Shown here: piece by piece, positions 5,724-59,488 of the stretch
Numbering within the stretch: the stretch's first letter is position 1
Layout: each line of letters opens with the position of its first letter
Source: Methanomicrobia archaeon
Lineage (GTDB): Archaea > Halobacteriota > Bog-38 > Methanoflorentales > Methanoflorentaceae
Direction of reading: 5' to 3'
Length of the DNA stretch: 64,000 bases
NCBI GenBank assembly: GCA_015660915.1
Contig: JACTTZ010000003.1
Location: 4,479-68,478 of the forward strand
Translations under genes and position numbers: made by a program
The notes under the pieces: generated by a model
What the model saw: the letters and a program-made list of their open reading frames with translations, nothing else
Database searches by the model: none
Told to the model about the DNA's origin: nothing

Positions 5724-5873
5724 TACTCTAGTGACGCGATGCAATAAGATGACGATCATTGGCTGGAATCTCGATGATCGCGTTCCATTTGAGGAGCAAA
5801 AGGAGTTTTTATCCTGTTTTTCATAAACACTTTGGAACAAGCGATTGAACTTGATCCGAGACTTAAGTAGAGC

Positions 5874-6785
5874 CTACTCTTCGGTGAAGAAATCAGAATC
5901 GACTTGTTTTATTTCGTATTCGACGACCTTTGACACCCCGATGCCGTGATCGATCATAAGCTGTGCCAACATATCTCCATTGATAAGAACAACCTTATCC
6001 TCTATTTGCGAGGCATAGTCCGTTGCTTCACGTGAAAAATCAGCCGTAGTAATGAATACGCCTCTGCGTGCGCGCTGACCGTGGAGCGCCCCAACGAACT
6101 TCTGAATCTCCGGTCTGCCGACCGTCGCTTCCCACCTCTTAGCTTGCACGTAGACCACGCCTAACCCCAATGGGTCTTCCTTGATAATGCCATCTATCCC
6201 TTCGTCGCCGCTCTTGCCTAGCGCCTGTCCGGCATCTTTGATTGAGCCGCCATACCCCATCTCAACAAGTAGTTTAACCACTAGTCTCTCAAAAAAGCTA
6301 GGAGAACAGACTTTCAGTTTATCGAGCAGCTCTCTAGCCAAGTTCAGCCTCAGCTCCTGATAGGCATTTTCCATCACCTCAACGGGCGTCTGATCAGGGA
6401 CTTTTGCAGATTCGGCTTCGCCTTCTGTTCTATCTTCTTTTTTCCGCTGCAAGAACCCCACGAATCGCGGATATTGCTTTAAAAACTTGACGTCTATTGT
6501 CTTGGGACTCGCCTTAAGCGCATTTACGCCGTCTTCCGTTATTTTAAAAAAAGAGCGCCTCGTAGAGTCGACCAGCCCTGCTTTTTTTAAGTAAAACAAC
6601 CCCCATCGGACTCTGTTATCAAAAACTTGCTCGTAGCCGCTTGGCAATAGTTCTCTCCTTTCCTGAGTTGATACTTCAAAAACCGAAGCGACGTAGTCGT
6701 ATGCGTCGCTTATCGCGTGCTCTTCCTCATCAGAAGCGTATTGTAAGAGTGGGAGCATTGCTTGTTGGTATTTGGGAATAGCCAT
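5874..6785 (-). CDS. mrr: Mrr-like type IV (modification-dependent) restriction endonuclease
   Basis: N-terminal Mrr_N winged helix (AIPKYQQAMLPLLQ...) plus C-terminal Mrr_cat-like region (GIDGII...VYVQAKRW). Likely true start at the internal Met MAIPKY preceded by GAGGTG. The ORF-track start at 6917 adds a 44-aa Arg-rich extension. Confidence 0.65.
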   Translation of the reverse strand: MAIPKYQQAMLPLLQYASDEEEHAISDAYDYVASVFEVSTQERRELLPSGYEQVFDNRVRWGLFYLKKAGLVDSTRRSFFKITEDGVNALKASPKTIDVKFLKQYPRFVGFLQRKKEDRTEGEAESAKVPDQTPVEVMENAYQELRLNLARELLDKLKVCSPSFFERLVVKLLVEMGYGGSIKDAGQALGKSGDEGIDGIIKEDPLGLGVVYVQAKRWEATVGRPEIQKFVGALHGQRARRGVFITTADFSREATDYASQIEDKVVLINGDMLAQLMIDHGIGVSKVVEYEIKQVDSDFFTEE

Positions 6786-6959
6786 AGCACCTCTTCTCAA
6801 ACATCGTCTCGAAGTATTCTCTGTTCGATATCTCCTAGCTAGATGCAGTAAAACCGTGCGACTGTTAAGACCCCTCAAACTCACAGATTTATTGTGGCGG
6901 TTCTTAAATCGCCGCAAACCAGTTGCTTAGCTGACTTGCTCAGTCTTCTTTGCTTACGT

Positions 6960-7430
6960 TTATTTTTTTTGGCTTGTTTTTTTAGCTTGTGAGATTATCC
7001 GATCGTAATCGCTTTGCGGAATCTGAACCACAGCTTTACCTCTAATAGGGCCAGTCCAGTATGTCTTGTTCGGTAAGAAAGAAAGTCTCAGTATTAAAGG
7101 CTTAAAATCGATGGGTGGTTCAAATACCCTTACAGCTTCCAACCGTAATCTCAACGGAAAAGTTTCATTTGGCGTATTCGGAGGTGTAACGAACAGCTTC
7201 TTGCTGTCTTCGAAGACTGTTGAAGCGATCTCATATTGTGCAACTATCTTCGGTCTTAACGTTTCGCCTGCGCTAATTTCACCTTTCACATAAACTAAGC
7301 ATTGGTCGCCTTTCTTTACTCTGGAGAGCGCATTCTTGTATCGTGCAGAAGCCCCGAGAATATTTGTCTTCTTTGTGATTGTCCAGTTGTCAGAGTTTGT
7401 TACATAGATCCAGTAAGCCATAGCCATCAA
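6960..7430 (-). CDS. EVE (PUA-like) domain protein, putative modified-base reader
   Basis: Starts AYWIYVTNSDNW...; size about 150 aa; PUA-like beta-barrel signature typical of EVE/ASCH proteins. Sits directly beside Mrr. Confidence 0.5.
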   Translation of the reverse strand: MMAMAYWIYVTNSDNWTITKKTNILGASARYKNALSRVKKGDQCLVYVKGEISAGETLRPKIVAQYEIASTVFEDSKKLFVTPPNTPNETFPLRLRLEAVRVFEPPIDFKPLILRLSFLPNKTYWTGPIRGKAVVQIPQSDYDRIISQAKKTSQKK

Positions 7431-7569
7431 ACCGAACCTATGCCCCCGCCGCTATAAAAAAGGCGCGTTGTGCACTTACTTGGGATGCTTGCACTGTTCA
7501 ACGACGAGAGTACCCAGCCAAGTAAAACTCGGCGCACTTGAACACGTAAAAAAAAGAATCGCTTGAATA

Positions 7570-7605
7570 CCCGAGTTTTTCCCGAGTTTTTCCCGAGTTC
7601 TTAGC
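7570..7605. repeat. tandem repeat (cccgagtttttc) x about 3
   Basis: Direct tandem copies are visible in the sequence. Confidence 0.7.
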
Positions 7606-7840
7606 TCCAAAAGTTCCTGTCGTAACCCGTCGGATACCCCCCTCATCCGCTGCTTTCGGGTCGATCGAACGTCTCGTGGCAAGGTCAAATAGATATTAAA
7701 AGCTCGAAATGTTTGCTCGGTTTCGCCATCCAACGCTTCCAAGGCTCGGGATTGTGAGGCTTAGGATTGACACCTACGCGAAGGGCTTTTACATCCATTA
7801 TGTTCTCGAAAATCTCTACAAAGAATTGCCCAAATCCCCG

Positions 7841-7920
7841 TGTTTTTACCGTGTTTTTTCCCTACTTTTACCGACCGTTTGCCGCTGCTTGACCGACACT
7901 TTTTTACCACCTGTTTACCC
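7841..7920. repeat. iteron-like cluster of TTTTACC motifs (at least 4 copies); candidate replication origin of the integrated element
   Basis: Repeated gtgtttttacc / cttttacc / ttttttacc / tgtttaccc within 80 bp in a non-coding stretch near the primase-helicase gene. Confidence 0.35.
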
Positions 7921-8185
7921 TTCCTAAAGACGTTCTGTATGATTCCAAGATACACTTTTCACGTTCGTTCAGCTCAAGGGCAAAGATTCGATCAGAAAAA
8001 GCTTGTGCCCGCTTGACCCTATCGTATCTCGCACTATACCGTTCAAGTTGGCGCAAGGAAAGAGAGAGGCTGTAGGTTTGCCGCAGCTTCTGAAGTGATC
8101 GGGAAGGGCCCATGTCTCGATAAAGGCAAAAAAGCTCATACGCCTTGCTGCGTTCATTGGGTAAACGATCCCATGCTTCGGTCAT
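7904..8185 (-). CDS. hypothetical small protein
   Basis: 93-aa ORF in the island, no motif. Confidence 0.25.
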   Translation of the reverse strand: MTEAWDRLPNERSKAYELFCLYRDMGPSRSLQKLRQTYSLSLSLRQLERYSARYDRVKRAQAFSDRIFALELNEREKCILESYRTSLGRVNRW

Positions 8186-8203
8186 TCAAACGATTCCTTT
8201 ATC

Positions 8204-8449: not shown

Positions 8450-10580
8450 TTTCGTCCCCTTCTAACAAGAGCGGTTTTCCGCCGGTTAGTTTCAAAAAGA
8501 TCGATGCTGCCGGGCCATTTCCGTTCACGAGCTCGCTGAAGCGGCGCTCGAGGATAATGCGCGACTGTCTATCATCGGCCGAGATGTTATTTTCTTCACA
8601 ATACATCGCGACTGTGAAATTGCAGAGATATTCCGGATCGCGGGGTTCCTTGTAATCGCCATCGGCCAACCATCCGAGCCTTTCGCTTACGTAGCCGTCG
8701 AAGTGTGCCTCCCGGTCGTGGTCGTCTGGTACATGCTTACCACGCGAGCAGTCGGCTATGAGCGTCTGCACTTCCGGATCAGTCTCGGCTAACTTTTTAT
8801 AGAACTGCTCGACGGGGTAGTCGCGCAACCAAGGCTTATCTGCCTTAATGGTCTTGCTCAATTCGGCAGCAAACTCGTTAGTTGTCATGTCGATGGGCCC
8901 AGACCGCGCCTTCTTGAACCCGTTTAGTATCTGCTTGACGTCTTCGACGAGTTCTTTTTCATGTTTTTCACGCTCGCCATTCACCTGAGGGCCTGAAGGC
9001 AATGAACCCATTTTGACTAACTTTTCATGATACCCCTCAGCCGTCATGTAACGAATGTCAAAACCACCTTCATAGCCTTCAGCATTCAGCTCAGCCTTCA
9101 GCGGTGCGGCAACCTCATCGTCATACTCGCCAATATCCCGTAACCGAATCCCTGCCCGCAGATTGCCGCTTTCTTTATGTATGCTCTTAAATCCGAGTTT
9201 CGTAAGATATGAGTAAAAACTCGTCGGCGTCGAGACGTTATGACGCTCCTCGGCGGTCGCGACGTTTCGAAATCGCTCATACAAGGCTTTAGACGTCGAT
9301 TCGGCGCCCGCTTCGACTATGCACTCACTCTCGATAAACGCGGCGAGCGGATTCATAGATTTTTGGTAGTCTTTCCGCGCAGCGTTGACCGAATCCGGCG
9401 GCATAAGGCCGTAGTCTTGCCAATCATAGCACCCCTGCACTAACCACGCAAAAATAGCCTTCTGCGCGTTCTCATCCTCTAAGAGAAATTCTTTGATTTT
9501 CGGGTCGCACTCCTCGAGAGCGATCGGGTTTAAGAACTGCACGATAAAGAACCGATTAAACGACGCATCATCGTCGAAGTCTAATTTCGGCAAGAAATTC
9601 GTCTCGATATAGAATTTTGTGCGCGGATCTATCTTGCGCTGCCTTTTTTCAAACAGGCCTCGGGCACTCTGCGGGTTCCCGCTCGTAACAGCCTTGAGAA
9701 ACGAATCATTGAAGACCATACCCCGAGGCACTTCGCTACACTGCGCGGCACGCACGCCCTCGAGACTAACAAGGTCTGCCCGCGCTCCTCCGGGTTTTTG
9801 TATCGCCTTTGCGAATGTCGATATGTTGACCGGGGCAGCATAATCGCCTAGGGTTTTAAAGATCGCATCTAAAAGCGTTGACTTACGTGCGTTCGCTTCA
9901 CCGTAGAGAACGAACAGGGCCTTGTCTCGATTGATCGCTGTCAATCCTGACCCACAAGCCCGCTGTAAAAACGCGCCTTGCTCGAGTGACAACACTTCGA
10001 TAAGCCGTTCGTACCATTCCGAGCTTACCGTCTCGGGTTCATAGGGCACGGCTGCTATTTTGGTTACCAAGTCGTTGCGATCCGGGTCGCGCAATTCCCG
10101 CGCATTTAAGTCAAGGGTTCCGTTTTGACAGTTGATGAGCCAAGGGTTGGCGTCAAAGTCTTTCGCCATGACTGCGATGCGCGGGTCTGACTGTGCAAGT
10201 TGAATCATCGCGTTTATGCGAAAATTGGAATCACTCTGATACGCCCAGTTCGTCAACCGCTTTTGTGCCGCTTTCCGTTCTTTCGGATCATCCTCATCGA
10301 TGAAACTCGCCTCTGCGTGTATGAGTTTGACCGTTTTTTTGGCCAGTTCTCGAATTTTGAGTGTGACGTCTCGAGGCCATCGCGAGTCATCCCATATGAA
10401 CCACTCACCAATTTCAGCGCAATAACGGATATCATCACCGTACAGAGCAATAAGTCGAAGCGCATTGCCGCCGTCTGTCAAAGGATAACCACACACTACC
10501 CGCACGTCGTTATGTGTGCTGGTTTTGAGGTCAAGCTCAGACAATGTATGCTCACGTATCCCGGGTTGTGATCCGCTCAC
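8442..10580 (-). CDS. plasmid/virus-type replication protein: primase-like N-terminal domain plus D5/SF3-helicase-like NTPase (P4/COG3378 family)
   Basis: N-terminal LTDGGNALRL motif (P4-type primase family). Central Walker-A-like YGEANARKSTLLD with downstream D5_N-like region. 712 aa, typical of MGE primase-helicases. Confidence 0.6.
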   Translation of the reverse strand: MSGSQPGIREHTLSELDLKTSTHNDVRVVCGYPLTDGGNALRLIALYGDDIRYCAEIGEWFIWDDSRWPRDVTLKIRELAKKTVKLIHAEASFIDEDDPKERKAAQKRLTNWAYQSDSNFRINAMIQLAQSDPRIAVMAKDFDANPWLINCQNGTLDLNARELRDPDRNDLVTKIAAVPYEPETVSSEWYERLIEVLSLEQGAFLQRACGSGLTAINRDKALFVLYGEANARKSTLLDAIFKTLGDYAAPVNISTFAKAIQKPGGARADLVSLEGVRAAQCSEVPRGMVFNDSFLKAVTSGNPQSARGLFEKRQRKIDPRTKFYIETNFLPKLDFDDDASFNRFFIVQFLNPIALEECDPKIKEFLLEDENAQKAIFAWLVQGCYDWQDYGLMPPDSVNAARKDYQKSMNPLAAFIESECIVEAGAESTSKALYERFRNVATAEERHNVSTPTSFYSYLTKLGFKSIHKESGNLRAGIRLRDIGEYDDEVAAPLKAELNAEGYEGGFDIRYMTAEGYHEKLVKMGSLPSGPQVNGEREKHEKELVEDVKQILNGFKKARSGPIDMTTNEFAAELSKTIKADKPWLRDYPVEQFYKKLAETDPEVQTLIADCSRGKHVPDDHDREAHFDGYVSERLGWLADGDYKEPRDPEYLCNFTVAMYCEENNISADDRQSRIILERRFSELVNGNGPAASIFLKLTGGKPLLLEGDESE

Positions 10581-11119
10581 GAACGACCTCCGTCGTCGCC
10601 GTCGCCCGAGAGCGAACTCGACTGAGGGTCGTTGCCAAAGCCCAGCAGCTTTCGGAGTTCTTGCATCTCCTTTGCTTTCGTATACTCCACATCAATCGCG
10701 CGCACTTGCGCTATGGTCTCATCAGCGTCTTGGTCACCGAGCGGCTTACGTCGTTGGATCCTGCGGAACAGCGCTAAAAGCAGCCATAACGGTACTTCGT
10801 CAGCGTAGCAATCGTTACGCCACTCAGCCCCAGCGCCGTCTTGATAGTTGATTAGGGCCCGTTCATCGCCGCGTTCAGTCAAATACCAGCTCACATTCTT
10901 ATGCTGCGTGCCAAAGCTCTCGCGCACTCCCTGACGCACGAATATCTGATATTCGTAGAGCAAGTGCTCTGCCGCGTCGTATAGGTCGTTGGACAGCGTG
11001 GCCGTCTCGCCACGTCTCAGCTCTGTCGTGACTTCCTTTAAGCTTCTGTGTGTCTCGCTCTCGTAGTCATCGGCGGGCGTGACATAGCCGCGATTCGGGT
11101 CAAAATATGAACTCGTCAT
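10577..11119 (-). CDS. hypothetical protein
   Basis: ORF translationally coupled (ATGA overlap) to a duplicated 3'-end remnant. Likely ATG start at MTSSYFDP. Confidence 0.35.
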   Translation of the reverse strand: MTSSYFDPNRGYVTPADDYESETHRSLKEVTTELRRGETATLSNDLYDAAEHLLYEYQIFVRQGVRESFGTQHKNVSWYLTERGDERALINYQDGAGAEWRNDCYADEVPLWLLLALFRRIQRRKPLGDQDADETIAQVRAIDVEYTKAKEMQELRKLLGFGNDPQSSSLSGDGDDGGRS

Positions 11120-11169
11120 GCCCTCGCCTCCCACAACCGCTCCATTCTGAATATGAAGCTGTCTAGGTC
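11117..11169. repeat. about 53-bp direct repeat copy 1 (gene-junction cassette: 3' end ...F(I/F)(F/G)RMERLWEAR(A/S)* + ATGA start overlap)
   Basis: About 90% identical to 12004-12055. Confidence 0.8.
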
Positions 11170-11183
11170 GTCGTGAATGTCGG

Positions 11184-12005
11184 TCATGCTCGATGCTCCC
11201 CGTTCGCTATTGCCCATAATTTTTCTCTGTCAACACGTTCAGCCCGAAGTACGCCATAAAAAACAGACGTGTCGTAAAACTCGAAAAGAGCAGCTTCGTA
11301 AAGCTCCCGGAGTGTATAAGGAGGAAGGGCGTCGAGTTCCACCTGCATGAGCTGACCGTAGTCTCGAATGAAGCCGGCTGCACGTGAATCGCCTTTTTTA
11401 CCCGGGTTTACCGGTAAATTATATTCACTTACCTGATCCTCATTGAGCGCAATGCGTTGCACATGGTCAAAGCAGCTGCACCGCTTTTTGAAGTCTCTCA
11501 ATATGTCGACGCCGCTCGGATCGAAATCACCAGCATAAATGAGCACGGCTTGACGGTCATTGTTCGTAACATCCTCGATGATCACATCGACATACGTTTG
11601 CGACGAGTACCCACGAAGCGGGGCGATCGCAACACCGTATGTTTCAAACCACTGCTTCAACTGCGGCACCATGCCGTACTTTTCAACGCCGAGATAGACC
11701 GAGTACTCCTGCCTTTCATCGCGGTTACGGCAGTAGCTCCTAGTGAGCGATTTCAAAGCATCTTGCGGGCTACTGAATCCGCCAAAGCGGTGAATATCGC
11801 GTGTCTGGTCAACTAGCTGCGGAAACTGTCCGTTTCGACGAAGAGCCGCGGTGACCCTACTGAGTCTTTTATACGCGTACTCACTGTTCGGTATCGCGCC
11901 TTCAACGACCAAGCGATAGAACAGTTGTCGGAGAGAGACGCCGGTGTCATAAGAACGCACTATTTCAGCAGCTCGGGTGATGACGCGAGGCCATGAAATG
12001 CTCAT
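11184..12005 (-). CDS. Spo11/Topo VI-A-like 'Mini-A'-type protein (winged helix with Tyr + Toprim)
   Basis: wH motif SLRQLFYRLV (5Y-CAP-like R..Y). Toprim glutamate LGVEKYGMV and DxD motif IYAGDFDPSGVDI. 273 aa, shorter than Topo VI-A. Confidence 0.45.
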   Translation of the reverse strand: MSISWPRVITRAAEIVRSYDTGVSLRQLFYRLVVEGAIPNSEYAYKRLSRVTAALRRNGQFPQLVDQTRDIHRFGGFSSPQDALKSLTRSYCRNRDERQEYSVYLGVEKYGMVPQLKQWFETYGVAIAPLRGYSSQTYVDVIIEDVTNNDRQAVLIYAGDFDPSGVDILRDFKKRCSCFDHVQRIALNEDQVSEYNLPVNPGKKGDSRAAGFIRDYGQLMQVELDALPPYTLRELYEAALFEFYDTSVFYGVLRAERVDREKLWAIANGEHRA

Positions 12006-12226
12006 GACCTCGCCTCCCACAACCGCTCCATTCTGCCTATGAAGCTTTCTAGGTCATAAACGAAGGGTGCTAGTACGAGGTGGTATTCGTCGTCTTCGGT
12101 TTCGACGCGTTCAAGCTCGTAACACAGGTCGCCGTAGAGCTCCTGTGCCCCTATCAAAATCAAAAGAGGGCGCTCTGCATCAAAGCGCTTATCAAAGCGC
12201 AGCCCGTCACTGCTCACCGCGTGCAC
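12002..12226 (-). CDS. hypothetical small protein
   Basis: 74-aa ORF; its stop overlaps the downstream start (ATGA). Its last 16 codons are duplicated at 11120-11170. Confidence 0.35.
   Translation of the reverse strand: MHAVSSDGLRFDKRFDAERPLLILIGAQELYGDLCYELERVETEDDEYHLVLAPFVYDLESFIGRMERLWEARS
12004..12055. repeat. direct repeat copy 2 (see 11117-11169)
   Basis: Covers the 3' end of gene 12002-12226 and the start of 11184-12005. Confidence 0.8.
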
Positions 12227-13836: not shown

Positions 13837-15393
13837 TCATCCTTGTCGCTGCTGTTTTTCTCTAAATGCCTGCACAAGTTTGGCTGAGCGTTCCCTGTCG
13901 CCTTTAATTGCTTCTTGCGACACCGCCTTAGCAGGCTCTATTACGTTTTTGTTTATCGATTTGACCAGATCGGCCGTATCTTCATACCAATAGGTATCGA
14001 GAATCATCGTTTCAAGTTTCTTTCGCAAGCCAATCAGCACCATATGCTCTCCCTTCGCTTTTTCTGAGGCGACTCGGATGGGCAGTATAGGCACAGCAGC
14101 GCCCGTATCAGCGATGTGTTGCACCTCGATAGGCACCATCTCAGGGTCAGTAAAGTCAGCGATAACGAACTGCGCCATACGTGCAAGAGTAGATACTGTT
14201 TCGATAAACGTTTGGCTCTCCGGTTTTTCAAAGTCGAATACTACAGGCACATAGTCATGATGACGAAGTTCGTCTCGGACTGCGTCGAGCGTCGGCTTTT
14301 GCTCATCAGTGAAGCGGCCGAGGAGAAGCACGACTTTTGAGGTCATAATATCAATAACATTTCGCAGCTTTTCGTATTTCGTTAGCAAATAGATGAACTG
14401 CGCGACCTCAAGGTCGTCAACGGTGATCACGGGCTCTCGTTCGTATATATTGCTGATGTTCAAGTTTGACTGATCTTTTGGCTTACCTTGAAGGTTCCAC
14501 ACCGAGCTACCGTACACGGCACATCCAGCAAAAATGGCATCCGCGATGGTCGTTTCTACAAAAATTGCCCTCGTGAGATTGGCGTCTGAAAGGTCGGTAC
14601 CTGTCAGATCCGCATTTGAAAGATCGGCAGAATAGAGGGTAGCGTGAGAGAGGTTAGCGTGGGAGAGGACGGCTTTGTAGAGGTGGGCTTCTCGCAAGGT
14701 GGCGCCAGAGAGGTTGGCGTCGGTGAGCTTGGCCTTATAGAGGTGGGCGCGGGTGAGGTCGGCTAACGAGAGGTCGGCGCCCCTCAGATCCGCATTTGAA
14801 AGATATGCGTCGACAAGAATAGCGCCAGAGAGGTTAGCGCCGGAGAGGTGGGCAAAGGAGAGGTGGGCCTCGCTGAGATTAGGCCTCACCTCAGAGTACT
14901 TATCACGCCAACTGTTCCACTCGTCAACGCCTTGTTTCAGAATTTCAAGGTGCGATTCATTTGCCGTAGAAGATCTCACTGCGAGCGTCAGGCCGGCGTC
15001 GGTGAGGTCTGCACCCGTCAGATCCGCATTTGTAATGTTAGCGTTAGAGAGGTCGGCGCCGCTGAGGTCGGCGTTAGAGAGGTCGGCGCCAGAGAGCTCG
15101 GCGTTAGAGAGGTCGGCGCCAGAGAGGTCGGCGCCAGAGAGGTTAGCGTCGGTGAGCTCGGCGTGGGAGAGGTTAGCGCCAGAGAGGTTAGCGCCAGAGA
15201 GGTCGGCGTCGGTGAGGTCGGCGTAGAAGAGGTCGGCTCCGATGAGGTTGGCTTCGTAGAGGTCGGCTTCTGGGAGGTGGGCGCCGCTAAGATCGGGCCT
15301 CACGTCATGGTACTCTTCACGCCAACTGTTCCAGACTTTAAAGCCTTGCTTTAGGATTTCGAGATGTGATTCATTGACCATCGAAGATCTCAC
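13837..15393 (-). CDS. pentapeptide-repeat protein with duplicated N-terminal module and a C-terminal non-repeat alpha/beta domain
   Basis: Long runs of A(D/N)LSGA(N/D)L pentapeptides. Two copies of the module ESHLEILKQG..WNSWR..Y.(D/E)VRP(D/N)LS.AHL. The C-terminal 190 aa are non-repetitive (KVVLLLGRFTDEQ...VPVVFDFEKPE...FVIADFTDPE). Confidence 0.7.
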   Translation of the reverse strand: MRSSMVNESHLEILKQGFKVWNSWREEYHDVRPDLSGAHLPEADLYEANLIGADLFYADLTDADLSGANLSGANLSHAELTDANLSGADLSGADLSNAELSGADLSNADLSGADLSNANITNADLTGADLTDAGLTLAVRSSTANESHLEILKQGVDEWNSWRDKYSEVRPNLSEAHLSFAHLSGANLSGAILVDAYLSNADLRGADLSLADLTRAHLYKAKLTDANLSGATLREAHLYKAVLSHANLSHATLYSADLSNADLTGTDLSDANLTRAIFVETTIADAIFAGCAVYGSSVWNLQGKPKDQSNLNISNIYEREPVITVDDLEVAQFIYLLTKYEKLRNVIDIMTSKVVLLLGRFTDEQKPTLDAVRDELRHHDYVPVVFDFEKPESQTFIETVSTLARMAQFVIADFTDPEMVPIEVQHIADTGAAVPILPIRVASEKAKGEHMVLIGLRKKLETMILDTYWYEDTADLVKSINKNVIEPAKAVSQEAIKGDRERSAKLVQAFREKQQRQG

Positions 15394-15581
15394 TCGTCAA
15401 ATTGGCATAACAGAGTCAGCCATAAGCGCATCCGTCTAACGGTTCACTCCACGTTGCACGCTGCTGCACTTTTTGCTTTGTCAATTCTAGTGGAATTATC
15501 TTAGCTGCTGAAAACTTTATCGGCTTGTGTTCTGCGGCAGTAGCGTGGTTTGAGATGGAGTGGCGTTTGATTTTCGCCGGT

Positions 15582-15720
15582 TTATCTGGAAATTATGAGC
15601 TTAACGTTATTCCAATATTGCATATACACATCATATGCGTGCTCAGGCAGCGGATGCTTATAGTGCTTCCAATCGATACCGCTGACGCCGTGCGTCGTAC
15701 ACGCTCTGACCGACAGAATC
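15582..15720 (-). pseudogene. tyrosine integrase C-terminal remnant (...THGVSGIDWKHYKHPLPEHAYDVYMQYWNNVKL*), no start codon
   Basis: Strong protein/DNA similarity to the C-terminus of the intact integrase 20218-21045. Confidence 0.5.
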
Positions 15721-16030
15721 GTAATGCCGCCCAATAATTTCTGCTCCTTCTTATGTGCGCGCTGTGAGCTAAGGCAAACTTGTCTGCCAAGCTACCTGAA
15801 AATGTGAACCCAGAGATTGATCGCCATAGGTACCATCGTCACTATGATAACCAAGATGACGAACAGTGGCGTTATTTTTGCTTTTCCACGCCAGACAAGA
15901 TAAAAAACAATAGCATCGGTGACTGCGACGATGATGGTAGCGATAATAAGAGCTCTCACAAAGAGGTCGACCATAGTTTTACTGCTCACGCTTCAGTGTT
16001 CATTTGATTCAAAAAACTGTTAGCGACAGT

Positions 16031-16264
16031 TTAGTTGTCTAGGCGGGTATTGTGCCAATATTTTATAAACCCGTAATAAACGTGCTCAGGCAAAGGATGC
16101 TTGTCATGCTTCCAATCTATACCGCTCACGCCATGCGTCATTATGTAAGCACGATTTGACTGATCCCAGCCTATTGCGTCACCGCCCTGCTCGCAAAACT
16201 TGCGCAGATCGCCAAGCACGAAATGCCCCTTAAACTGTGACATCGGAATCTTCTGCCGTTTCAT
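16031..16264 (-). pseudogene. tyrosine integrase C-terminal remnant (box II + catalytic Tyr region)
   Basis: GDLRKFCEQ...WDQSN..Y.(L/M)THGVSGIDWKH.KHPLPEHVY matches the intact integrase C-terminus. Confidence 0.6.
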
Positions 16265-16448
16265 CTATATCCCCAAAAAGCCATGTCGGAAAACAGCTTC
16301 ATCGTCTTTTTTTCTTCGATCGACTCCCCGCCAAAGATGGCGTATTGGAAAGGATTATTCGTTAAGTTCAACAAGAGTCGGTTGCGAACCTTCATGCTGA
16401 ACTGGCAAACCACCAACGACAAGGATCTTTGCCTTAGACGACGCATCT

Positions 16449-16781
16449 GTGAATATGGAACTACCTGCACTAACGCAGTTTATCGCTAACATTAGCGTGG
16501 CGGTCGACGCCGGCTACGATACAAACGTTGCCGAGATACGCGCCCACATCGAACGCGGCGATATCATATCGTTTTTAACAGATATGTGCTGCGCCGATCC
16601 CGTTCTAATGGCAAAGCTCGTGCGTGAGCACTGGGCAACAGAGACTGAGAATGAGCTTAATGAGCTACTCGGTGATGAGTCAGGAGACGAAAAACTTGCG
16701 GGGAGCTTCAATCGAAGCGGCTTATGCTACCTCATCGCGCTTACGACGCGACTGATTGAGCGGCGCTCTTTCAGGGCTTAA
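16449..16781 (+). CDS. hypothetical protein
   Basis: 110-aa ORF, no motif. Confidence 0.25.
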   Translation: MNMELPALTQFIANISVAVDAGYDTNVAEIRAHIERGDIISFLTDMCCADPVLMAKLVREHWATETENELNELLGDESGDEKLAGSFNRSGLCYLIALTTRLIERRSFRA

Positions 16782-17134
16782 ACGCACTTAGGCAGTTCGT
16801 TTTATGAGCGCCATGGATTTACGGTGGTTTCGCGCGAGGAGACGAATGAGCTTCTGCAACAGCACTAGAACATTCTAAGAAGGCAAATCGAGACGTCGGT
16901 TGTGCTTAAGCTAATACTTGCAGATTCCCGCTGAACTGCACCAGTCTTGGGCATCAAAAATGGTCTTCTGGCGGCCAAAGCATGGCCCTAAACTCGCGGT
17001 TGAAAAACATTGCAAAGCTGCATACTGGAGCTTAAACTTTGAAGTGTACATCTTTCCAATACCGTATGTACGCATCATACACATTCTCGACCGAAAGAGT
17101 TTAGTGTTGGTTTTATACTTTTTTTTTCCAAATA

Positions 17135-18406
17135 ATGACGATTATCATAGGGATCAATTTCGGTGCGTATGTGTTATTAGCTGCCGATACACGAGCTACT
17201 CTCCTCAACTTGAGCAACCGCCCATACCGCCGTCGCGATGATCACAAAAAGATTAACAAGACTAGCTCTGGCATAGTCGCAGGTCGAGGTATTGATGAAC
17301 TCCTTGAACTTGTCAATTCCAAGTTTGATGAAATTCATGAGATCATTAGTACTGATGAAGTTCGAAGAATCATAAACAATGAAAGACAACATTTCCGCGA
17401 ACTTTACCCAGAGAACAAACAAGGCATTGAAAACACTGCTTGGATTTTTAGCTATTTAACGTTTAGCGAAGGAACTTTCGACAAAGGCACACCGACTCTT
17501 CGACTAGGCGTCAATGGTCGTGGCATAGACATCATTGGACGTCGCCACATAGTCGACAACTGCCCTTGCGTAATTCCGCCACCCGAGGCAACTAAACAAG
17601 ATGCTAGTTTTATCTTTGACTTTCTGAATGAATCAATAAAGGGCTTCGATCAGTTTAAGACGATAGGCGACAGCATCGAATATCATTGGTCATTAATTGC
17701 CCGTTTAATTCGAACAATTCAGCCTAAGTTTGATAGCATAAGTCGTCATTGTCAGATAGGTGTGCATACACTAGACGGTCATACCGGTATATCTTCAATT
17801 CTAAAAGACACCGATACTAGCGCTTCAATAACTCTGAAGCCACCACCTTCACCGTCGAGCGTCATATCTACCGTGGGACGATTAACTACTCTGACGAACG
17901 AAGCATATGGGTTTAGAATAACATATCCTGTAACTTGGAAAATTGAAGAGGCGCTTTCCGCGTTTGATCCCGTCAGAGTCCGCATCTTCTTACCTACAGA
18001 TGATTACGAGGATAACGTTAGCGTTGCTATGTTCAGTCTCGAGCCAAATACATCGCTTGATGGCGTTATCAAATACAACTTAAATGATATTCGAAACCTT
18101 AACGACATCCGCCTTGTATCAGAAAGAAACTCCACTATCGCTAATCATCCTTCCTACACAGCGGTGTTTGAAGGGATTGTTCCTGTTCAGCTAAGCGAAA
18201 CGTCTCCCGTCGCCCAAGATATAATACATAAAGCGAAACAAATATGCGCGGTGAATAATGACGCGCTTTACGTCGTCACCTACAAAACGGCGCGAGACAA
18301 GTACGACCAGTATTTAGCGCCAGCGCAACGAATCATGGATTCTTTTGTTTTCGTCAGACCACACGATATATTCAAACCGAACAAAAAATGGTTAATTCGA
18401 TACTGA
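17135..18406 (+). CDS. Ntn-hydrolase (proteasome beta / HslV-like) domain protein fused to a C-terminal domain of unknown function
   Basis: N-terminus MTIIIGINFGAYVLLAADTRAT mirrors the proteasome-beta TTIVGIK..GVVLAADTRAT, with Thr2 positioned as a potential N-terminal nucleophile. The C-terminal 200 aa are a beta-rich domain, possibly PsbP/Mog1-like. Confidence 0.4.
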   Translation: MTIIIGINFGAYVLLAADTRATLLNLSNRPYRRRDDHKKINKTSSGIVAGRGIDELLELVNSKFDEIHEIISTDEVRRIINNERQHFRELYPENKQGIENTAWIFSYLTFSEGTFDKGTPTLRLGVNGRGIDIIGRRHIVDNCPCVIPPPEATKQDASFIFDFLNESIKGFDQFKTIGDSIEYHWSLIARLIRTIQPKFDSISRHCQIGVHTLDGHTGISSILKDTDTSASITLKPPPSPSSVISTVGRLTTLTNEAYGFRITYPVTWKIEEALSAFDPVRVRIFLPTDDYEDNVSVAMFSLEPNTSLDGVIKYNLNDIRNLNDIRLVSERNSTIANHPSYTAVFEGIVPVQLSETSPVAQDIIHKAKQICAVNNDALYVVTYKTARDKYDQYLAPAQRIMDSFVFVRPHDIFKPNKKWLIRY

Positions 18407-18609
18407 GAAATGTTCTTCTTAGATCGTATATAGATGCCGAACCTGTGCTCAGGCAGACAGATGTTTACAGCGCGGTAAGGGTTCCAATATGGAGCGTTTC
18501 GCGCTTCTTTTTTCTTGGTTGCACGCCTACGCTATATCCGCACGTGCTTTCATCTAAGTTATCGGTCAGGGCACGGATCGTCTCACGCTAACCGCACATC
18601 CGCCCAATA

Positions 18610-18861
18610 CTAGATATACGTATCATAGACGTTCTCCGGCAATGGGTGTTTGTAGTGCTTCCAATCGATGCCGCTCACCCCGTGCGTCAGGATGTCAGCG
18701 CGATTTGGTTGGATCCACTCGATAATACCAATACTGTTCACGAAACTACACAGATCGTTGGGTAGCGCTTCTGTCAGCGGTAGGATCTGGCAGGGCAGTG
18801 CCGCAGTTTGCGTGCGTACGAGGCACATCGAATGCCACCATCCCCACATTTTTTTCATCAA
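18610..18861 (-). pseudogene. tyrosine integrase C-terminal remnant
   Basis: ...ILTHGVSGIDWKHYKHPLPENVYDTYI* matches the intact integrase. The upstream part is unrelated. Confidence 0.55.
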
Positions 18862-19078
18862 GTCTCAAAAGAAGCCCCTGAACGAAGGAAATTCAAAAAA
18901 GAGATGATGATCGGGGAGTAACTAACAGGCTAGTCTAAACGTAATAACTAGATTTCAAGGTGCCACCTTAATCCAGCCGTGCCCTTATCGCGCGGCTAAA
19001 ATGCTCATTCAAGCGCTTTGATGGGGGGAAACCCTATATCGCGGAACCTTTCATAACCGTGTAAAGGAGGTAAGTAGA

Positions 19079-19489
19079 ATGGTCGCACTACCTGAAAAGG
19101 TAATAGAGAACTTCAACACGTGGAAGGGGCGCGCCCGCGCCGTGTTCGCGACGGTAAGCGATGCGGGCGTACCCAACGTGGTTCCTGTTGGGGCGCTTAT
19201 GGTGAAAGATCCAGAGACGATCCTCATCGGCGACAACTTCTTCAAGAAAACAGCCGAAAACGTGAGGCGACCGAACTGCCATGTGGCCGTAACGTCGTGG
19301 ATCGGCAGGGAGGGCTATCAGGTGAAGGGCACTGGTAACTACGTGACTGACGGCCCCGACTACGAGATGATGAAGCAGTTTATAAAGGCGATCAACCCGA
19401 ACCTGCCAGCTAAGGGCTGCCTCGTGATGAAGGTCACTGAGGTGTTTGACGTCGCGCCCGGGCCGAGCGCGGGAGAGAAGATCGTGTAG
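19079..19489 (+). CDS. pyridoxamine 5'-phosphate oxidase-like FMN/F420-binding split-barrel protein
   Basis: Size about 135 aa; pattern NVVPVG..ILIGDNFF..T..N typical of PNPOx-related small flavin-binding proteins. Confidence 0.55.
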   Translation: MVALPEKVIENFNTWKGRARAVFATVSDAGVPNVVPVGALMVKDPETILIGDNFFKKTAENVRRPNCHVAVTSWIGREGYQVKGTGNYVTDGPDYEMMKQFIKAINPNLPAKGCLVMKVTEVFDVAPGPSAGEKIV

Positions 19490-19908
19490 ATCGGTGTCGA
19501 AAAAATAAGCACTCGTGCAGGCTTTTATGATCCCACAAGTATAGCGCATACGCGTCATATGCATCGCAGCGGATGCTTATGACGTCACCACTCTACGCGT
19601 GAAACTCCGTGGGGCAAGACATCATTGCTTTCGCTGCAATCTGAAATGCTTGGTGATATAACCTCTTATTTTGTTTATAACCCCGACGCTGAAGTCTGTT
19701 ACACTTCCCGGCCGAGGCTTAACAGTCGGTTCACCTTTCGCTACCTGCTCACCGGTTTACACTCTCTTGTAGTGGAAAGCGACAGGCTCGTTACCTTTTA
19801 AATGGACTGGCAAAGCGAGTGCATTTGTCTCAAGATATCAGTTGAACCGAAAGACAAAAAATAACTGAACTCAAAGCGACGAACAAACTAGATCCAGTCT
19901 GCGAATGG

Positions 19909-20196
19909 GTGGGAGGTGAAACATTGCAAAGCGACGAAGAACTGATGAGGTTAGCTCGAAAACGCGCTGAAGACAGGGTTGGATTCTATATACACCTCAC
20001 CATTTACGTCGTGGTGAACCTTTTCCTCGTAGCCGTATGGTGGTTTACAGGCGCGGGGTTCCCGTGGTTTGTCTTTGTGATCGGTTTTTGGGCGATCGGA
20101 TTAGTCGCCCACGGCGCGAGCGTCTTTATGGGGGGTGGAATGACGGATAGGATCACTGAACGCGAATATCAGAAACTCAAACGAGATAAGGAATAG
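19909..20196 (+). CDS. 2TM-domain small membrane protein
   Basis: Two hydrophobic helices after a basic N-terminus (RVGFYIHLTIYVVVNLFLVAVWW...); resembles 2TM family proteins. Confidence 0.4.
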   Translation: MGGETLQSDEELMRLARKRAEDRVGFYIHLTIYVVVNLFLVAVWWFTGAGFPWFVFVIGFWAIGLVAHGASVFMGGGMTDRITEREYQKLKRDKE

Positions 20197-20217
20197 CGAG
20201 CGACCTTTTTAACTGGG

Positions 20218-21045
20218 CTAAGCGTCGAATCTCACATCTTTCCAGTACTTCATGTATACGTCATACACGTTCTCAGGCAGCGGGTGCTTGTAAAATCGCC
20301 AATCGACACCTGAAACGCCGTGAGTGAGTACATAGTTCTTATTCGATTGATCCCACAGCAGAATATCGGATTGTTGCTCACAGAATTTTCTTAGATCTCC
20401 GTTTACTATACGGGCCCCGCTGTTCAACAATCGAACGCCAGTGTGCTTGAGCCACTCCTGAAAGGATAGTTGCTGAAAAACAAATTCATCATCAGGCCGA
20501 TCTTCCAACGCGGGAATCATCGCCTCTACAACTTGCGGATGCAGGGGGCAATAATGCTGCATTCGGATTTTGTCTTGCCACGGAAGCACGTCGACAGCAG
20601 GCTTCTTCGTTTTCACAGCTTCCCTGAACTGGCCGACGGTTAACCGTGCTATTGTTGCCAAAGGCCGCTGCCCAGTGAACGCACCAAACAACGTCAGTGC
20701 TTTGTAATTAAGGCGGTGATAGTCATCTATCCGCCCGACACTATAGGAGAGTTCAATCGCCTTCAGCACATTCTCAACGTCTTCTTTCGTAATGATTCTC
20801 GAAGTGACATGCTTACGCGTTTTGAGCGTTTTAGGCATTTCCAAAAAGAGTTCAAATGCCTGAAAGCGCATGTCGAACGTCGTCTTCGCGAGATACTTCA
20901 AAAGACCTTTGGTGAAATAGAGCACTTTGCGTTTTGAATAGACGCAAGTGTATTTTGTCAGAGTGAAATTGCGCACTGCGTCTATCGTTTCCTTGCTAAC
21001 AGTGCCGTGCGTATGCTTCCAGACGATTTCAGCCGCCTTATTCAT
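20218..21045 (-). CDS. int: tyrosine recombinase / phage-type integrase (intact copy)
   Basis: Catalytic signature in order: R (TGQRPLAT), H..LRKF (box II), HGVSGVDWRFY (His/Trp + Tyr nucleophile). Three co-oriented C-terminal remnants lie nearby. Confidence 0.7.
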   Translation of the reverse strand: MNKAAEIVWKHTHGTVSKETIDAVRNFTLTKYTCVYSKRKVLYFTKGLLKYLAKTTFDMRFQAFELFLEMPKTLKTRKHVTSRIITKEDVENVLKAIELSYSVGRIDDYHRLNYKALTLFGAFTGQRPLATIARLTVGQFREAVKTKKPAVDVLPWQDKIRMQHYCPLHPQVVEAMIPALEDRPDDEFVFQQLSFQEWLKHTGVRLLNSGARIVNGDLRKFCEQQSDILLWDQSNKNYVLTHGVSGVDWRFYKHPLPENVYDVYMKYWKDVRFDA

Positions 21046-52387: not shown

Positions 52388-52471
52388 TGCACCGACCGGG
52401 ATTCGAACCCGGGTTGTGGGCTTTCTTCACGCGTTGGAAGGCCCAAGTCATAACCGCTAGACCATCGGTGC
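52388..52471 (-). tRNA. tRNA-Gly(UCC) with a 12-nt intron 3' of the anticodon
   Basis: Manual fold: acceptor GCACCGA/TCGGTGC, anticodon arm TGGGC-CUUCCAA-GCCCA, T-arm CCGGG-TTCGAAT-CCCGG. TATA-like ATTAATATA about 30 nt upstream. Confidence 0.7.
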
Positions 52472-59066: not shown

Positions 59067-59372
59067 CAAAATGTGTGGAGATGCGAACATCAGAGAAGTT
59101 GAAGCAATTCGGTTTTTCGCTTTTCATAGGCCTCGCTAGTGATAAAACCTTTCTCACGTAACACATCGAGCTTTTCTATTTGCTCGATTATGTCCTCTTT
59201 CATGCTTTGATGCTTCTCTTCGTTAGCCATCGTGTTTCGGATAGCCTTTATGAACGATAAACTTTATGTATTTTCACACGTAATAATATATTCTTTTTTG
59301 CTTGCACCCTTCACGTAGACGTTAACCCAAGAAGTGGTACACGCGTAGCGTGTAAAAGCAGTACTTTGAACA

Positions 59373-59468
59373 AGCCGCCGGAGGGATTTGAACCCTCGAT
59401 CTGCTGATACTTCTTTGAGCGGTGCTCAAATACGAATCAGCCGCTATGCCGAGCTTAGCCACGGCGGC
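59373..59468 (-). tRNA. tRNA-Thr(CGU) with a 22-nt intron (hairpin UUUGAGC...GCUCAAA) after position 37
   Basis: Manual fold: acceptor GCCGCCG/CGGCGGC, D-stem GCTA/TAGC, anticodon stem GCTGA/TCAGC with loop UUCGUAA, T-arm GAGGG-TTCAAAT-CCCTC. Confidence 0.6.
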
Positions 59469-59488
59469 CACGCATAGTATGTTTAGAC

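Follow-up and report, generated by a model that had tools for sequence, protein, structure and literature searches.

A proteasome-type N-terminal domain fused to a PsbP-like domain between integrase remnants of a methanomicrobial archaeon

The gene and its product

The stretch of DNA considered here (hereinafter, the window) comprises 64,000 nucleotides of contig JACTTZ010000003.1 from the Methanomicrobia archaeon assembly GCA_015660915.1, and harbors, at positions 17135..18406 of the plus strand, a gene whose product joins a proteasome-type Ntn-hydrolase (N-terminal nucleophile hydrolase) domain to a PsbP-like domain; the gene is enclosed by remnants of integrase genes. The list of open reading frames (ORFs) confirms a complete ORF of 423 codons plus a stop, with an ATG start and the N-terminus MTIIIGINFGAYVLLAADTRAT. 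The N-terminal domain (N-domain), residues 1-232 (17135..17830), is assigned to the proteasome-beta type of Ntn-hydrolases by its AlphaFold2 (AF2) model and by Foldseek. It runs into a Pro/Ser-rich linker at approximately residues 228-242 (17816..17860; …SASITLKPPPSPSSV…), which shows no regular secondary structure in the model and where the stand-alone members of the family terminate. The linker is followed by an alpha/beta domain of the PsbP-like (Mog1/PsbP) type, residues 243-402 (17861..18340), assigned by Pfam and Foldseek, and by a C-terminal tail, residues 403-423 (18341..18403), which is modelled with low confidence (the predicted local distance difference test score, pLDDT, is below 50 for residues 410-423) and is not conserved, the orthologues either stopping earlier or diverging there.

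The start codon at 17135 is the earliest one possible past the preceding in-frame stop, so that no propeptide can be encoded. In an alignment of 98 N-domains, drawn from cluster representatives and having a mean column identity of 25%, the column of the initiator holds methionine in 90 sequences and V or L in the other 8, which reflects GTG and TTG starts. A reading of this DNA made from the sequence alone had proposed that the protein lacks a propeptide and carries a potentially nucleophilic threonine directly behind the methionine; given the use of the first possible start codon and the conservation of an M-T/S N-terminus in the family, both proposals hold.

The gene is maintained by selection. 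More than 100 assembly blocks contain the identical protein, with the gene neighbourhood of the window shared by the 3 places displayed, and the full-length orthologues are 54-70% identical to the window protein. When the window gene was compared with four orthologues by the Nei-Gojobori method, the ratio of nonsynonymous to synonymous substitution rates (dN/dS) came to 0.20-0.23 in the N-domain and to 0.23-0.37 in the C-terminal domain (C-domain); the values among the orthologues themselves were 0.22-0.48, which yields overall ranges of 0.20-0.35 and 0.23-0.48, respectively. Purifying selection (dN/dS of 0.2-0.5) acts on both domains.

A predicted proteasome-type fold with a conserved catalytic set

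For residues 1-236, AF2 run with the 98-sequence alignment produced a model that has a mean pLDDT of 93.7 and a predicted template modelling score (pTM) of 0.90, and that displays the complete topology of a proteasome beta subunit, namely S1-S11 (eleven-plus strands) together with H1/H2 and H3/H4, but no H5. The strands of the model span residues 4-8, 12-18, 21-24, 30-34, 40-42, 47-51, 102-110, 120-128, 131-133, 144-147, 206-212 and 217-219, and the helices span residues 54-66 (H1), 73-100 (H2), 154-167 and 177-198. Comparison of this model with the Protein Data Bank (PDB) using Foldseek gave 476 matches at E<=1e-3, the best 50 of which are all 20S beta subunits or Anbu proteins that match over the whole domain, with E from 7e-7 to 1.6e-5 and template modelling (TM) scores of 0.45-0.65; an earlier, full-length model gave the same proteasome-type result. 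It is the predicted fold that settles the identity of residues 1-232 as a proteasome-beta-type Ntn domain.

The sequence signal emerges from the deepest profile. The window protein taken alone shows no proteasome match in Pfam, NCBIfam or, with phmmer, the PDB, and none to the proteasome family PF00227 even at E<=10; nor was there a proteasome match in the PDB for a profile of 27 family sequences. When the 98-sequence profile was run against all PDB sequences, 24 of the 28 matches at E<=10 were 20S beta subunits (best E 0.017), all of them aligned in the catalytic register. Profile-profile comparison with hhalign against Thermoplasma beta, yeast beta2 and beta5, M. tuberculosis PrcB and E. coli HslV (five references validated by full-length PDB matches of 1e-79 to 1e-93) gave E 1.9e-4 and a probability of 47% over the first 48 columns, again in the same register. 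A Pfam scan of the 98 members produced only two recurrent families, PF00227 in 7 members (best E 0.029) and, in 2 members, the connectase N-domain PF09894, with all matches below threshold. Judged by these comparisons, the similarity to known proteasome-type proteins is real, even if marginal, and does not extend past the ~50 catalytic residues at the N-terminus; the proteasome-beta-like start that had been noticed in this ORF is thus borne out by profile, hhalign and fold evidence that exceeds chance.

In the printed alignment of the profile with yeast beta2, position 2 of the family falls on the mature Thr1, Asp18 on Asp17, Lys39 on Lys33, and Gly52 on Gly47. Position 2, which in the window protein is the predicted N-terminal nucleophile (codon at 17138..17140; Thr1 once the methionine is removed), is Thr in 80 and Ser in 17 of the 98 sequences, that is, T/S in 97. 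Asp18 (17186..17188), in the motif LLAADTR and placed in register by both hmmsearch and hhalign, is present in all 98 members, and Lys39 (17249..17251), in the motif DDxxKI, in 97. The putative oxyanion-hole residue Gly52 (17288..17290), which lies in the motif G-x-x-x-G-x-G and aligns with GAG47T of yeast beta2, is again found in 98/98. The counterpart of the conserved proteasome Arg19, Arg20, is kept in 87 members, and the segment between Asp18 and Lys39 (S2-S4) is ~5 residues longer than in the beta subunits. By this alignment, the predicted catalytic set Thr/Ser-Asp-Lys-Gly is intact and essentially invariant at all four positions; the sequence-only reading hinged on equivalents of Thr1, Asp17 and Lys33, and all three are in place.

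The PsbP-like C-terminal domain

The sequence-only reading described the remainder of the protein as an extra beta-rich domain of about 200 amino acids (aa) of unknown kind. The domain does exist, but it can be named. In the full-length model, the linker gives way to a strand-rich alpha/beta domain (residues 243-402, pLDDT mostly 60-88), before the low-confidence tail. The best Foldseek matches are to spinach PsbP (2vu4, E 4.6e-8, target TM 0.70), CyanoP (2xb3, target TM 0.72), PsbP-like NDH subunits and mycobacterial LpqN (6e5d), with E from 5e-8 to 5e-5; for PsbP and CyanoP, E lies between 5e-8 and 1e-7. The window protein scores 24.2 bits (E 3.8e-5) against Pfam PsbP_2 (PF18933), short of the cut-off of 27; two orthologues, P0006 (29.9 bits) and P0007 (35.2 bits), clear this threshold, P0006 clears that of PsbP (PF01789) as well, and one orthologue has an additional, weaker match to Lpp-LpqN. 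By its fold and by Pfam in the orthologues, the C-terminal domain is a PsbP/Mog1-type module.

Known PsbP-type proteins are either extrinsic proteins of photosystem II or secreted or lipoprotein binding modules. The domain described here, although sharing the fold of PsbP, CyanoP, PsbP_2 and LpqN, differs from them in being archaeal, in having no signal peptide, and in being fused to a protease-type domain. Since the catalytic threonine must be the N-terminus, a signal peptide is precluded, so that this PsbP-like domain would be intracellular. The fusion is confined to the sub-clade of the window protein (P0001-P0007). The only other long member listed, P0144 (419 aa), was considered as a second fusion and rejected, its extension being an unrelated Ala-rich helical region. 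In the literature, we found no paper that combines a proteasome homologue with PsbP; the PsbP-like fusion, along with the repeated tie of the family to archaeal integrases and replication modules (see below), appears to be new.

An unannotated family of proteasome homologues

A word-indexed search of 5.8 billion proteins recovered 26 relatives, ~7 of them full-length and ~19 being proteins of ~240 aa that match residues 1-232 only. An exhaustive search of 1.84 billion cluster representatives with a hidden Markov model of the N-domain yielded 442 sequences at E<=1e-3, of which 259 remain at E<=1e-10; with few exceptions, they are stand-alone proteins of 220-250 aa. The family thus amounts to ~440 clusters at 50% identity, almost all of them metagenomic; the relatives in the genome collection, with 30-42% identity, belong to Bathyarchaeia, to unclassified 'Euryarchaeota' metagenome-assembled genomes and to one bacterium of the Vicinamibacterales. 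No model of Pfam, NCBIfam, PHROG or PADLOC covers the N-domain family, no member has a precomputed Pfam domain on the N-domain, only 3 of 41 members are from NCBI, and the public names of the members are 'hypothetical protein' or, for the fusions, 'PsbP'.

Two copies look damaged at the N-terminus. At locus L003 (10001-10727), the ORF begins downstream of the tblastn match and is devoid of the MT…AADTR segment, and P0004 (locus L050, 2993-4225) reads MTIYLIFDTCETSF… where the catalytic strand is expected; both are possibly decaying copies, or else assembly errors.

Proteasome-type Ntn-hydrolases outside the 20S particle have become a field of study only recently and, to our knowledge, HslV, Anbu, BPH and connectase are the only ones to have been characterised. 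Free-standing homologues, which the sequence-only reading held to be rare, are widespread nonetheless: Fuchs, Alva and Lupas described, in 2021, 22 new families beyond these four, which share the S1-S11 core and the Thr/Ser1-Asp17-Lys33-Gly47 set (PMC8665760), so that the claim of rarity is outdated. According to that survey, propeptides occur only in the beta subunits and HslV, several families possess extra C-terminal domains, and the new families show neither an informative gene context nor an AAA+ partner, PPH and AAH being phage-borne (PMC8665760). The absence of a propeptide and a life outside the 20S particle are, therefore, ordinary in the proteasome superfamily.

Where, then, does the present family belong? 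The best PDB matches, both by sequence and by fold, come from the 20S beta subunits (PF00227; yeast beta2/PUP1, Thermoplasma PsmB), with which it shares the S1-S11, H1-H4 topology and the motif T-[TI]-I-x-G…AADTR…K-[IL]…G-x-G, with Thr1, Asp17, Arg19, Lys33 and Gly47 in register. In contrast to these subunits, the family remains below the Pfam threshold and has no propeptide, no H5 and a Pro turn in place of Gly-Ser129-Gly, and the gene studied here lies on mobile elements, is fused to PsbP and has no alpha-subunit or AAA+ gene linked to it. The assignment as a canonical 20S beta subunit was rejected on the missed PF00227 threshold, the apparent loss of Gly128-Ser129-Gly130 and Asp166, and the lack of alpha-subunit or AAA+ genes in the neighbourhoods of 24 dereplicated loci. 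The proposal that the protein is a proteasome-beta/HslV-like Ntn-hydrolase stands in its core, but the protein is not HslV itself: HslV has ~175 aa and is encoded beside hslU, whereas the domain here has ~230 aa and no adjacent AAA+ gene at any locus, and there is no HslV chain among the PDB sequence matches at E<=10 or the top 50 fold matches.

Anbu (5nyg, 5lox) is matched equally well by fold (E 3e-6, TM 0.58-0.60) and likewise has no propeptide, Thr1 directly behind the methionine and no AAA+ partner (PMC8665760). It was set aside, as its long C-terminal H5 coiled-coil helix is absent here and as Anbu is bacterial only, in contrast to the mainly archaeal hosts of the present family; among the PDB sequence matches at E<=10, there is no Anbu chain. 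Connectase (the MJ0548 family, PF09894, 6zvz), a highly specific protein ligase with biotechnological use, is also an archaeal stand-alone protein that has Thr/Ser1, lacks an ATPase and can bear an accessory beta-rich domain at its C-terminus. It provides the best functional analogy for the fusion architecture. An assignment to connectase was nevertheless rejected: instead of its loss of H1/H2 and its two-helix S3/S4 insertion, which lies over the active site, H1/H2 are present here and residues 21-34 make a beta hairpin. Moreover, the C-terminal domain of connectase is a small beta barrel, as opposed to a PsbP-like domain, and its gene is a chromosomal methanogen gene tied to MtrA, as opposed to the mobile-element setting described below.

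The 22 families of Fuchs and co-authors (WPH, PHI, ACC, PMI-1 to 6, GPH, DAH, RPC, FC1-5 and others) are of the same general kind, with the conserved residues and with neither propeptide nor AAA+ partner. Extra C-terminal domains occur in connectase, DAH, FC4, RPC as well as in 'DGH', but none of those described is PsbP-like; for RPC, DAH and 'DGH', these domains match nothing of known structure, and that of FC4 resembles phage tail proteins. The traits named for the archaeal families among them, namely, the coiled coil of ACC and WPH, the helical insertion of PHI and the multiple insertions of PMI, are not seen in our model. Taken together, these comparisons identify a separate, unannotated family that is distinct from HslV, Anbu, connectase and the canonical 20S beta subunits.

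Integrase remnants and the genomic context of the family

By its content, the window is archaeal (it encodes eRF1, TrmB regulators, geranylgeranyl reductases and two tRNAs that probably contain introns), and approximately its first 21 kb form a mobile/defence island. Here, the location between integrase remnants that had been read from the sequence is exact: the target gene fills the interval between two remnants of 3' ends of integrase-like genes, both on the minus strand. The upstream one, at 17033..17088, consists of the last ~18 codons (…ENVYDAYIRYWKDVHFKV, followed by the stop) and was delineated by the direct-repeat family D4 and by translation; the downstream one, at 18581..18861, is a C-terminal remnant (…THGVSGIDWKHYKHPLPENVYDTYI, followed by the stop) that was delineated by the repeat families D3 and D4, by translation and by a BLAST cluster. 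The source family of the remnants is represented by an intact gene for a 275-aa tyrosine-recombinase-like protein at 20218..21045 (minus strand), the product of which shares, along its entire length, 45% identity with a homologue of 504 aa for which Pfam Phage_integrase scores above threshold, and itself matches phrog_216 'integrase' at E 3.4e-6. Further remnants on the minus strand, recognized from repeats and translation, lie at ~15589-15734 and 16031-16264.

The same arrangement surrounds an orthologue. P0001, which is 70% identical to the window protein, has minus-strand remnants of the same integrase family on both sides (L048, 946-1137 and 2822-3049; L049, 1009-1200), the upstream remnant comprising 64 codons as compared to 18 in the window. 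The unit of integrase 3' remnant, gene, and integrase 3' remnant is therefore conserved.

Seen as a whole, the region 15560-21045 (minus strand) is a tandem array of four 3' remnants in the same orientation (with ends at ~15589, 16031, 17033 and 18581) plus the intact copy; the copies are 63-77% identical in DNA, and one or two small cargo genes are inserted between them, namely, a 110-aa ORF, the proteasome homologue, and a PNPOx gene with one for a two-transmembrane (2TM) protein. This array looks like the outcome of repeated integration into a site that overlaps the 3' end of the integrase gene, or of cassette-like accretion; there is no tRNA gene near it.

For comparison of neighbours across the family, 24 dereplicated loci were collected with the N-domain alignment. 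In these neighbourhoods, no AAA+ ATPase, alpha-subunit or other enzymatic partner recurs. What does recur, apart from antisense artefacts, are the integrase family of the window (5 groups), integrases of the Pfam type (3 loci that make up 4 groups, as two paralogues occur at one of them) and a small AbrB-like protein (5 groups). An integrase is found within the fetched region in 8 of the 17 groups that have at least 8 kb of sequence. Other contexts include Cdc6/Orc1 with ParB, an integrase and ApeA/HEPN; a Prim-Pol/PriCT replicase; a type ISP restriction-modification (R-M) system with Mrr and TBP; Tc-toxin genes; and, occasionally, plain metabolic neighbours. The ORFs that directly precede the gene in the window, in L006 and in L014 show no relation to one another and have no significant Pfam match.

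Several of these contexts merit description in their own right. At L009, two diverged stand-alone paralogues (7431-8192 and 10001-10780) lie 2 kb apart on one element, which also carries Cdc6/Orc1, ParB, HTH_17, a Phage_integrase fragment and an ApeA_NTD1/HEPN_Apea pair. Type ISP R-M and Mrr genes adjoin the family member in L007 and L008, and a type ISP R-M gene is found near the member in L026. The small AbrB-like proteins form a family with the motif Y-P-[TL]-I-R-L-P…Y-Q-T-V-H-E-G…F-L-V-V, which is AbrB/SpoVT-like by eye and has no significant match in Pfam (DUF2080 at E 0.16); their genes lie 0-1 kb from the proteasome homologue in several lineages (L015, 8849-9214; L006, 11283-11501 and 8750-9028; L019, 6789-7076; L004, 7596-8381; L007, 875-1279; L023, 1115-1348), and in L015 the AbrB-like gene overlaps the start of the integrase gene.

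The island of the window contains further genes of mobile or defence type. Its D5-type primase-helicase has strong matches to phage primase PHROGs. The primase module includes a 278-aa protein (11184-12020, minus strand) that matches phrog_6247 'DNA topoisomerase' at E 4e-45 and, weakly, the JetD Toprim-like model of PADLOC at E 5.6e-4, with no Pfam match at E<=0.01. A direct repeat of 63 nt, 89% identical, occurs at 11107-11169 and 11993-12055, at the 5' ends of the consecutive minus-strand genes 10577-11134 and 11184-12020 of this module; the two repeats may be duplicated translation-start or regulatory regions. A 518-aa protein encoded at 13837-15393 (minus strand) consists of two long blocks of pentapeptide repeats, which account for the direct repeats of 15-nt periodicity at 14522-15312, followed by a repeat-free C-terminus of ~170 aa (…VVLLLGRFTDEQKPTLDAVRDELRHHDYVPVVFDFEKPE…) with no Pfam match. 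A defence-type cluster at 2913-7430 comprises a fused R-M gene of the N6_Mtase/Eco57I/MmeI-like kind (936 aa, type IIG-like), Mrr and an EVE-domain protein. Outside the island, the tRNA genes at 52388-52471 (84 nt) and 59372-59469 (98 nt), both on the minus strand, pass the Rfam tRNA model, and ARAGORN assigns no normal anticodon to either; these are the two tRNAs mentioned above, probably intron-containing archaeal ones.

As for signals around the target gene, a stem-loop with a T-run at 18491..18517 (plus strand), 85 nt past the stop codon, was picked up by a pattern scan as a possible transcript end; with 1 site seen and 2.0 expected by chance, the scan is no evidence by itself. A TATA-like TTTTATAC at 17111-17118 was considered as a promoter element, but it lies ~20 nt from the ATG, nearer than the usual archaeal spacing, and no promoter is claimed.

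Mode of action and the competing explanations

Most likely, the gene product is an enzyme of the proteasome superfamily that is cytoplasmic, lacks a propeptide and employs its N-terminal threonine as the nucleophile, and it belongs to a family that serves as accessory cargo of archaeal (and some bacterial) integrative elements. Methionine aminopeptidases cleave off Met1 if the residue behind it is a small one such as Thr or Ser, as is the case with HslV. In proteasome-type enzymes, the hydroxyl of Thr1 is the nucleophile, proton transfers are handled by its own amine together with Lys33 and Asp17, and Gly47 gives the oxyanion hole. By analogy, we envisage that a methionine aminopeptidase would remove Met1, Thr or Ser at position 2 being permitted, so that Thr would become residue 1. 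Its hydroxyl could then attack a peptide bond. The proton transfers would fall to the free amino group of this threonine and to Lys39, with Asp18 positioning the lysine and the backbone at Gly52 making the oxyanion hole. The resulting acyl-enzyme would be either hydrolysed, as by a peptidase, or handed over to another amine, as by a transpeptidase of the connectase type. Since no dedicated unfoldase is encoded beside the gene, the target is probably specific or already unfolded, which would be at odds with bulk ATP-dependent degradation. In the fusion sub-clade, the flexible Pro/Ser linker may tether the PsbP-like module as a binding device that recruits a specific partner or substrate. This presumed binding role draws on connectase, the accessory C-terminal domain of which 'may assist in binding' of the substrate (PMC7980362).

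Several observations weigh against this interpretation. The fold similarity is moderate (TM 0.55-0.65, rmsd, the root-mean-square deviation, of 5-7 Å), and the sequence similarity, as quantified above by the best PDB E of 0.017 and the hhalign probability of 47%, is marginal and ends after ~50 residues. In the register given by the order of secondary-structure elements, the Gly-Ser129-Gly turn of the beta subunits is replaced by a conserved Pro149 turn (the sequence of the S9-H3 turn is I-P-P149-P-E, P149 occurring in 90/98 and a conserved Ser being absent), and the equivalent of Asp166 is not conserved, position 200 being a mixture of P, D and E; the Ser169-like S203 is kept in 78/98. With the Ser129 turn and Asp166 not retained, the periphery of the active site differs from that of the proteasome and activity is not guaranteed. 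Furthermore, H1/H2, the ring-contact helices of proteasomes, are retained in the family. Finally, a role in a conflict system finds no support: the target has no PADLOC or PHROG match, so that a known defence-system role was rejected for lack of evidence, and a scan of the viral contig collection, which detects only copies matching two peptide patterns, revealed no relative, which leaves a virus-borne origin unsupported as well.

The retained helices lead to the main rival, to which we assign a limited though tangible chance: a self-compartmentalising ring protease akin to HslV, BPH or the 20S particle, in which stacked hexameric or heptameric rings would become active on assembly, the PsbP domains would sit on the outside as docking sites, and unfolded polypeptides would enter without a dedicated ATPase. 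In proteasomes, H1/H2 and H3/H4 mediate the intra-ring and inter-ring contacts (PMC8665760), and the model preserves both pairs; a missing propeptide is tolerable where activity depends on assembly, and BPH functions without a known unfoldase (PMC8665760). Such rings would have to do without the H5 or coiled coil that stabilises double rings, the fold match to ring-forming subunits is moderate, and neither the appendage of 190 residues on each subunit nor the spread as a single mobile gene lends positive support.

A second rival, a sequence-specific transpeptidase or ligase of the connectase type, would be monomeric, would re-ligate an amide-linked Thr1 intermediate, and would have its cognate substrate held by the PsbP domain. 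The parallel in architecture, i.e. an Ntn domain with an optional C-terminal beta-rich domain that assists with the substrate (PMC7980362), is attractive, as are the alternation of Thr and Ser at position 1, also seen in connectase, the sub-threshold match of 2/98 members to the connectase N-domain, and the lack of an ATPase partner. Still, we regard this explanation as unlikely: the traits that define connectase, the loss of H1/H2 and the two-helix S3/S4 insertion, are missing, no connectase chain occurs among the PDB sequence matches or the 50 best fold matches listed, and no candidate substrate gene is linked to the locus.

It is very improbable that the protein is a catalytically dead scaffold (a relic comparable to an alpha-subunit) or the product of a decaying passenger gene, as might be suspected from its place among degraded integrase remnants, the N-terminal damage of P0004 in L050 and of the L003 copy, and the non-conserved Ser129 turn, given that the four catalytic positions are (near-)invariant across 98 sequences of ~25% mean column identity, dN/dS is 0.2-0.5 in both domains, the identical protein recurs in >100 assembly blocks, and an intact ORF begins with the conserved M-T.

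Returning to the preferred interpretation of a Thr1 enzyme carried by integrative elements, a bolder version of it, rather improbable in our estimate, can be formulated: an undescribed branch of the superfamily would travel as cargo of archaeal integrative elements and, encoded by a single gene and independent of ATP, serve as a target-specific protease or ligase where element and host interact. The target of such an enzyme might, for example, be a single protein of the host or of a competitor, recognized by the PsbP-like domain and then cleaved or re-ligated.

Implications

The locus adds to the proteasome superfamily a family that is named by no profile library and that has acquired, in one clade, a new accessory domain of the PsbP-like type. 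If the protein turns out to be merely another stand-alone homologue, the result would be a useful annotation that would not surprise a specialist after 2021. If it is active and specific, the fusion would give a handle on the substrate, with the PsbP domain as bait, and mobile elements would be seen to spread proteasome homologues in archaea, as phages do with PPH and AAH in bacteria. Should the target-specific cargo scenario be true, this would be a second connectase-like enzyme, its recognition module being new, and no earlier proteasome homologue would have been tied to mobile elements of archaea. With its intact catalytic set, built-in bait domain and mobile-element setting, this new domain architecture among the stand-alone homologues offers a clean, testable case.

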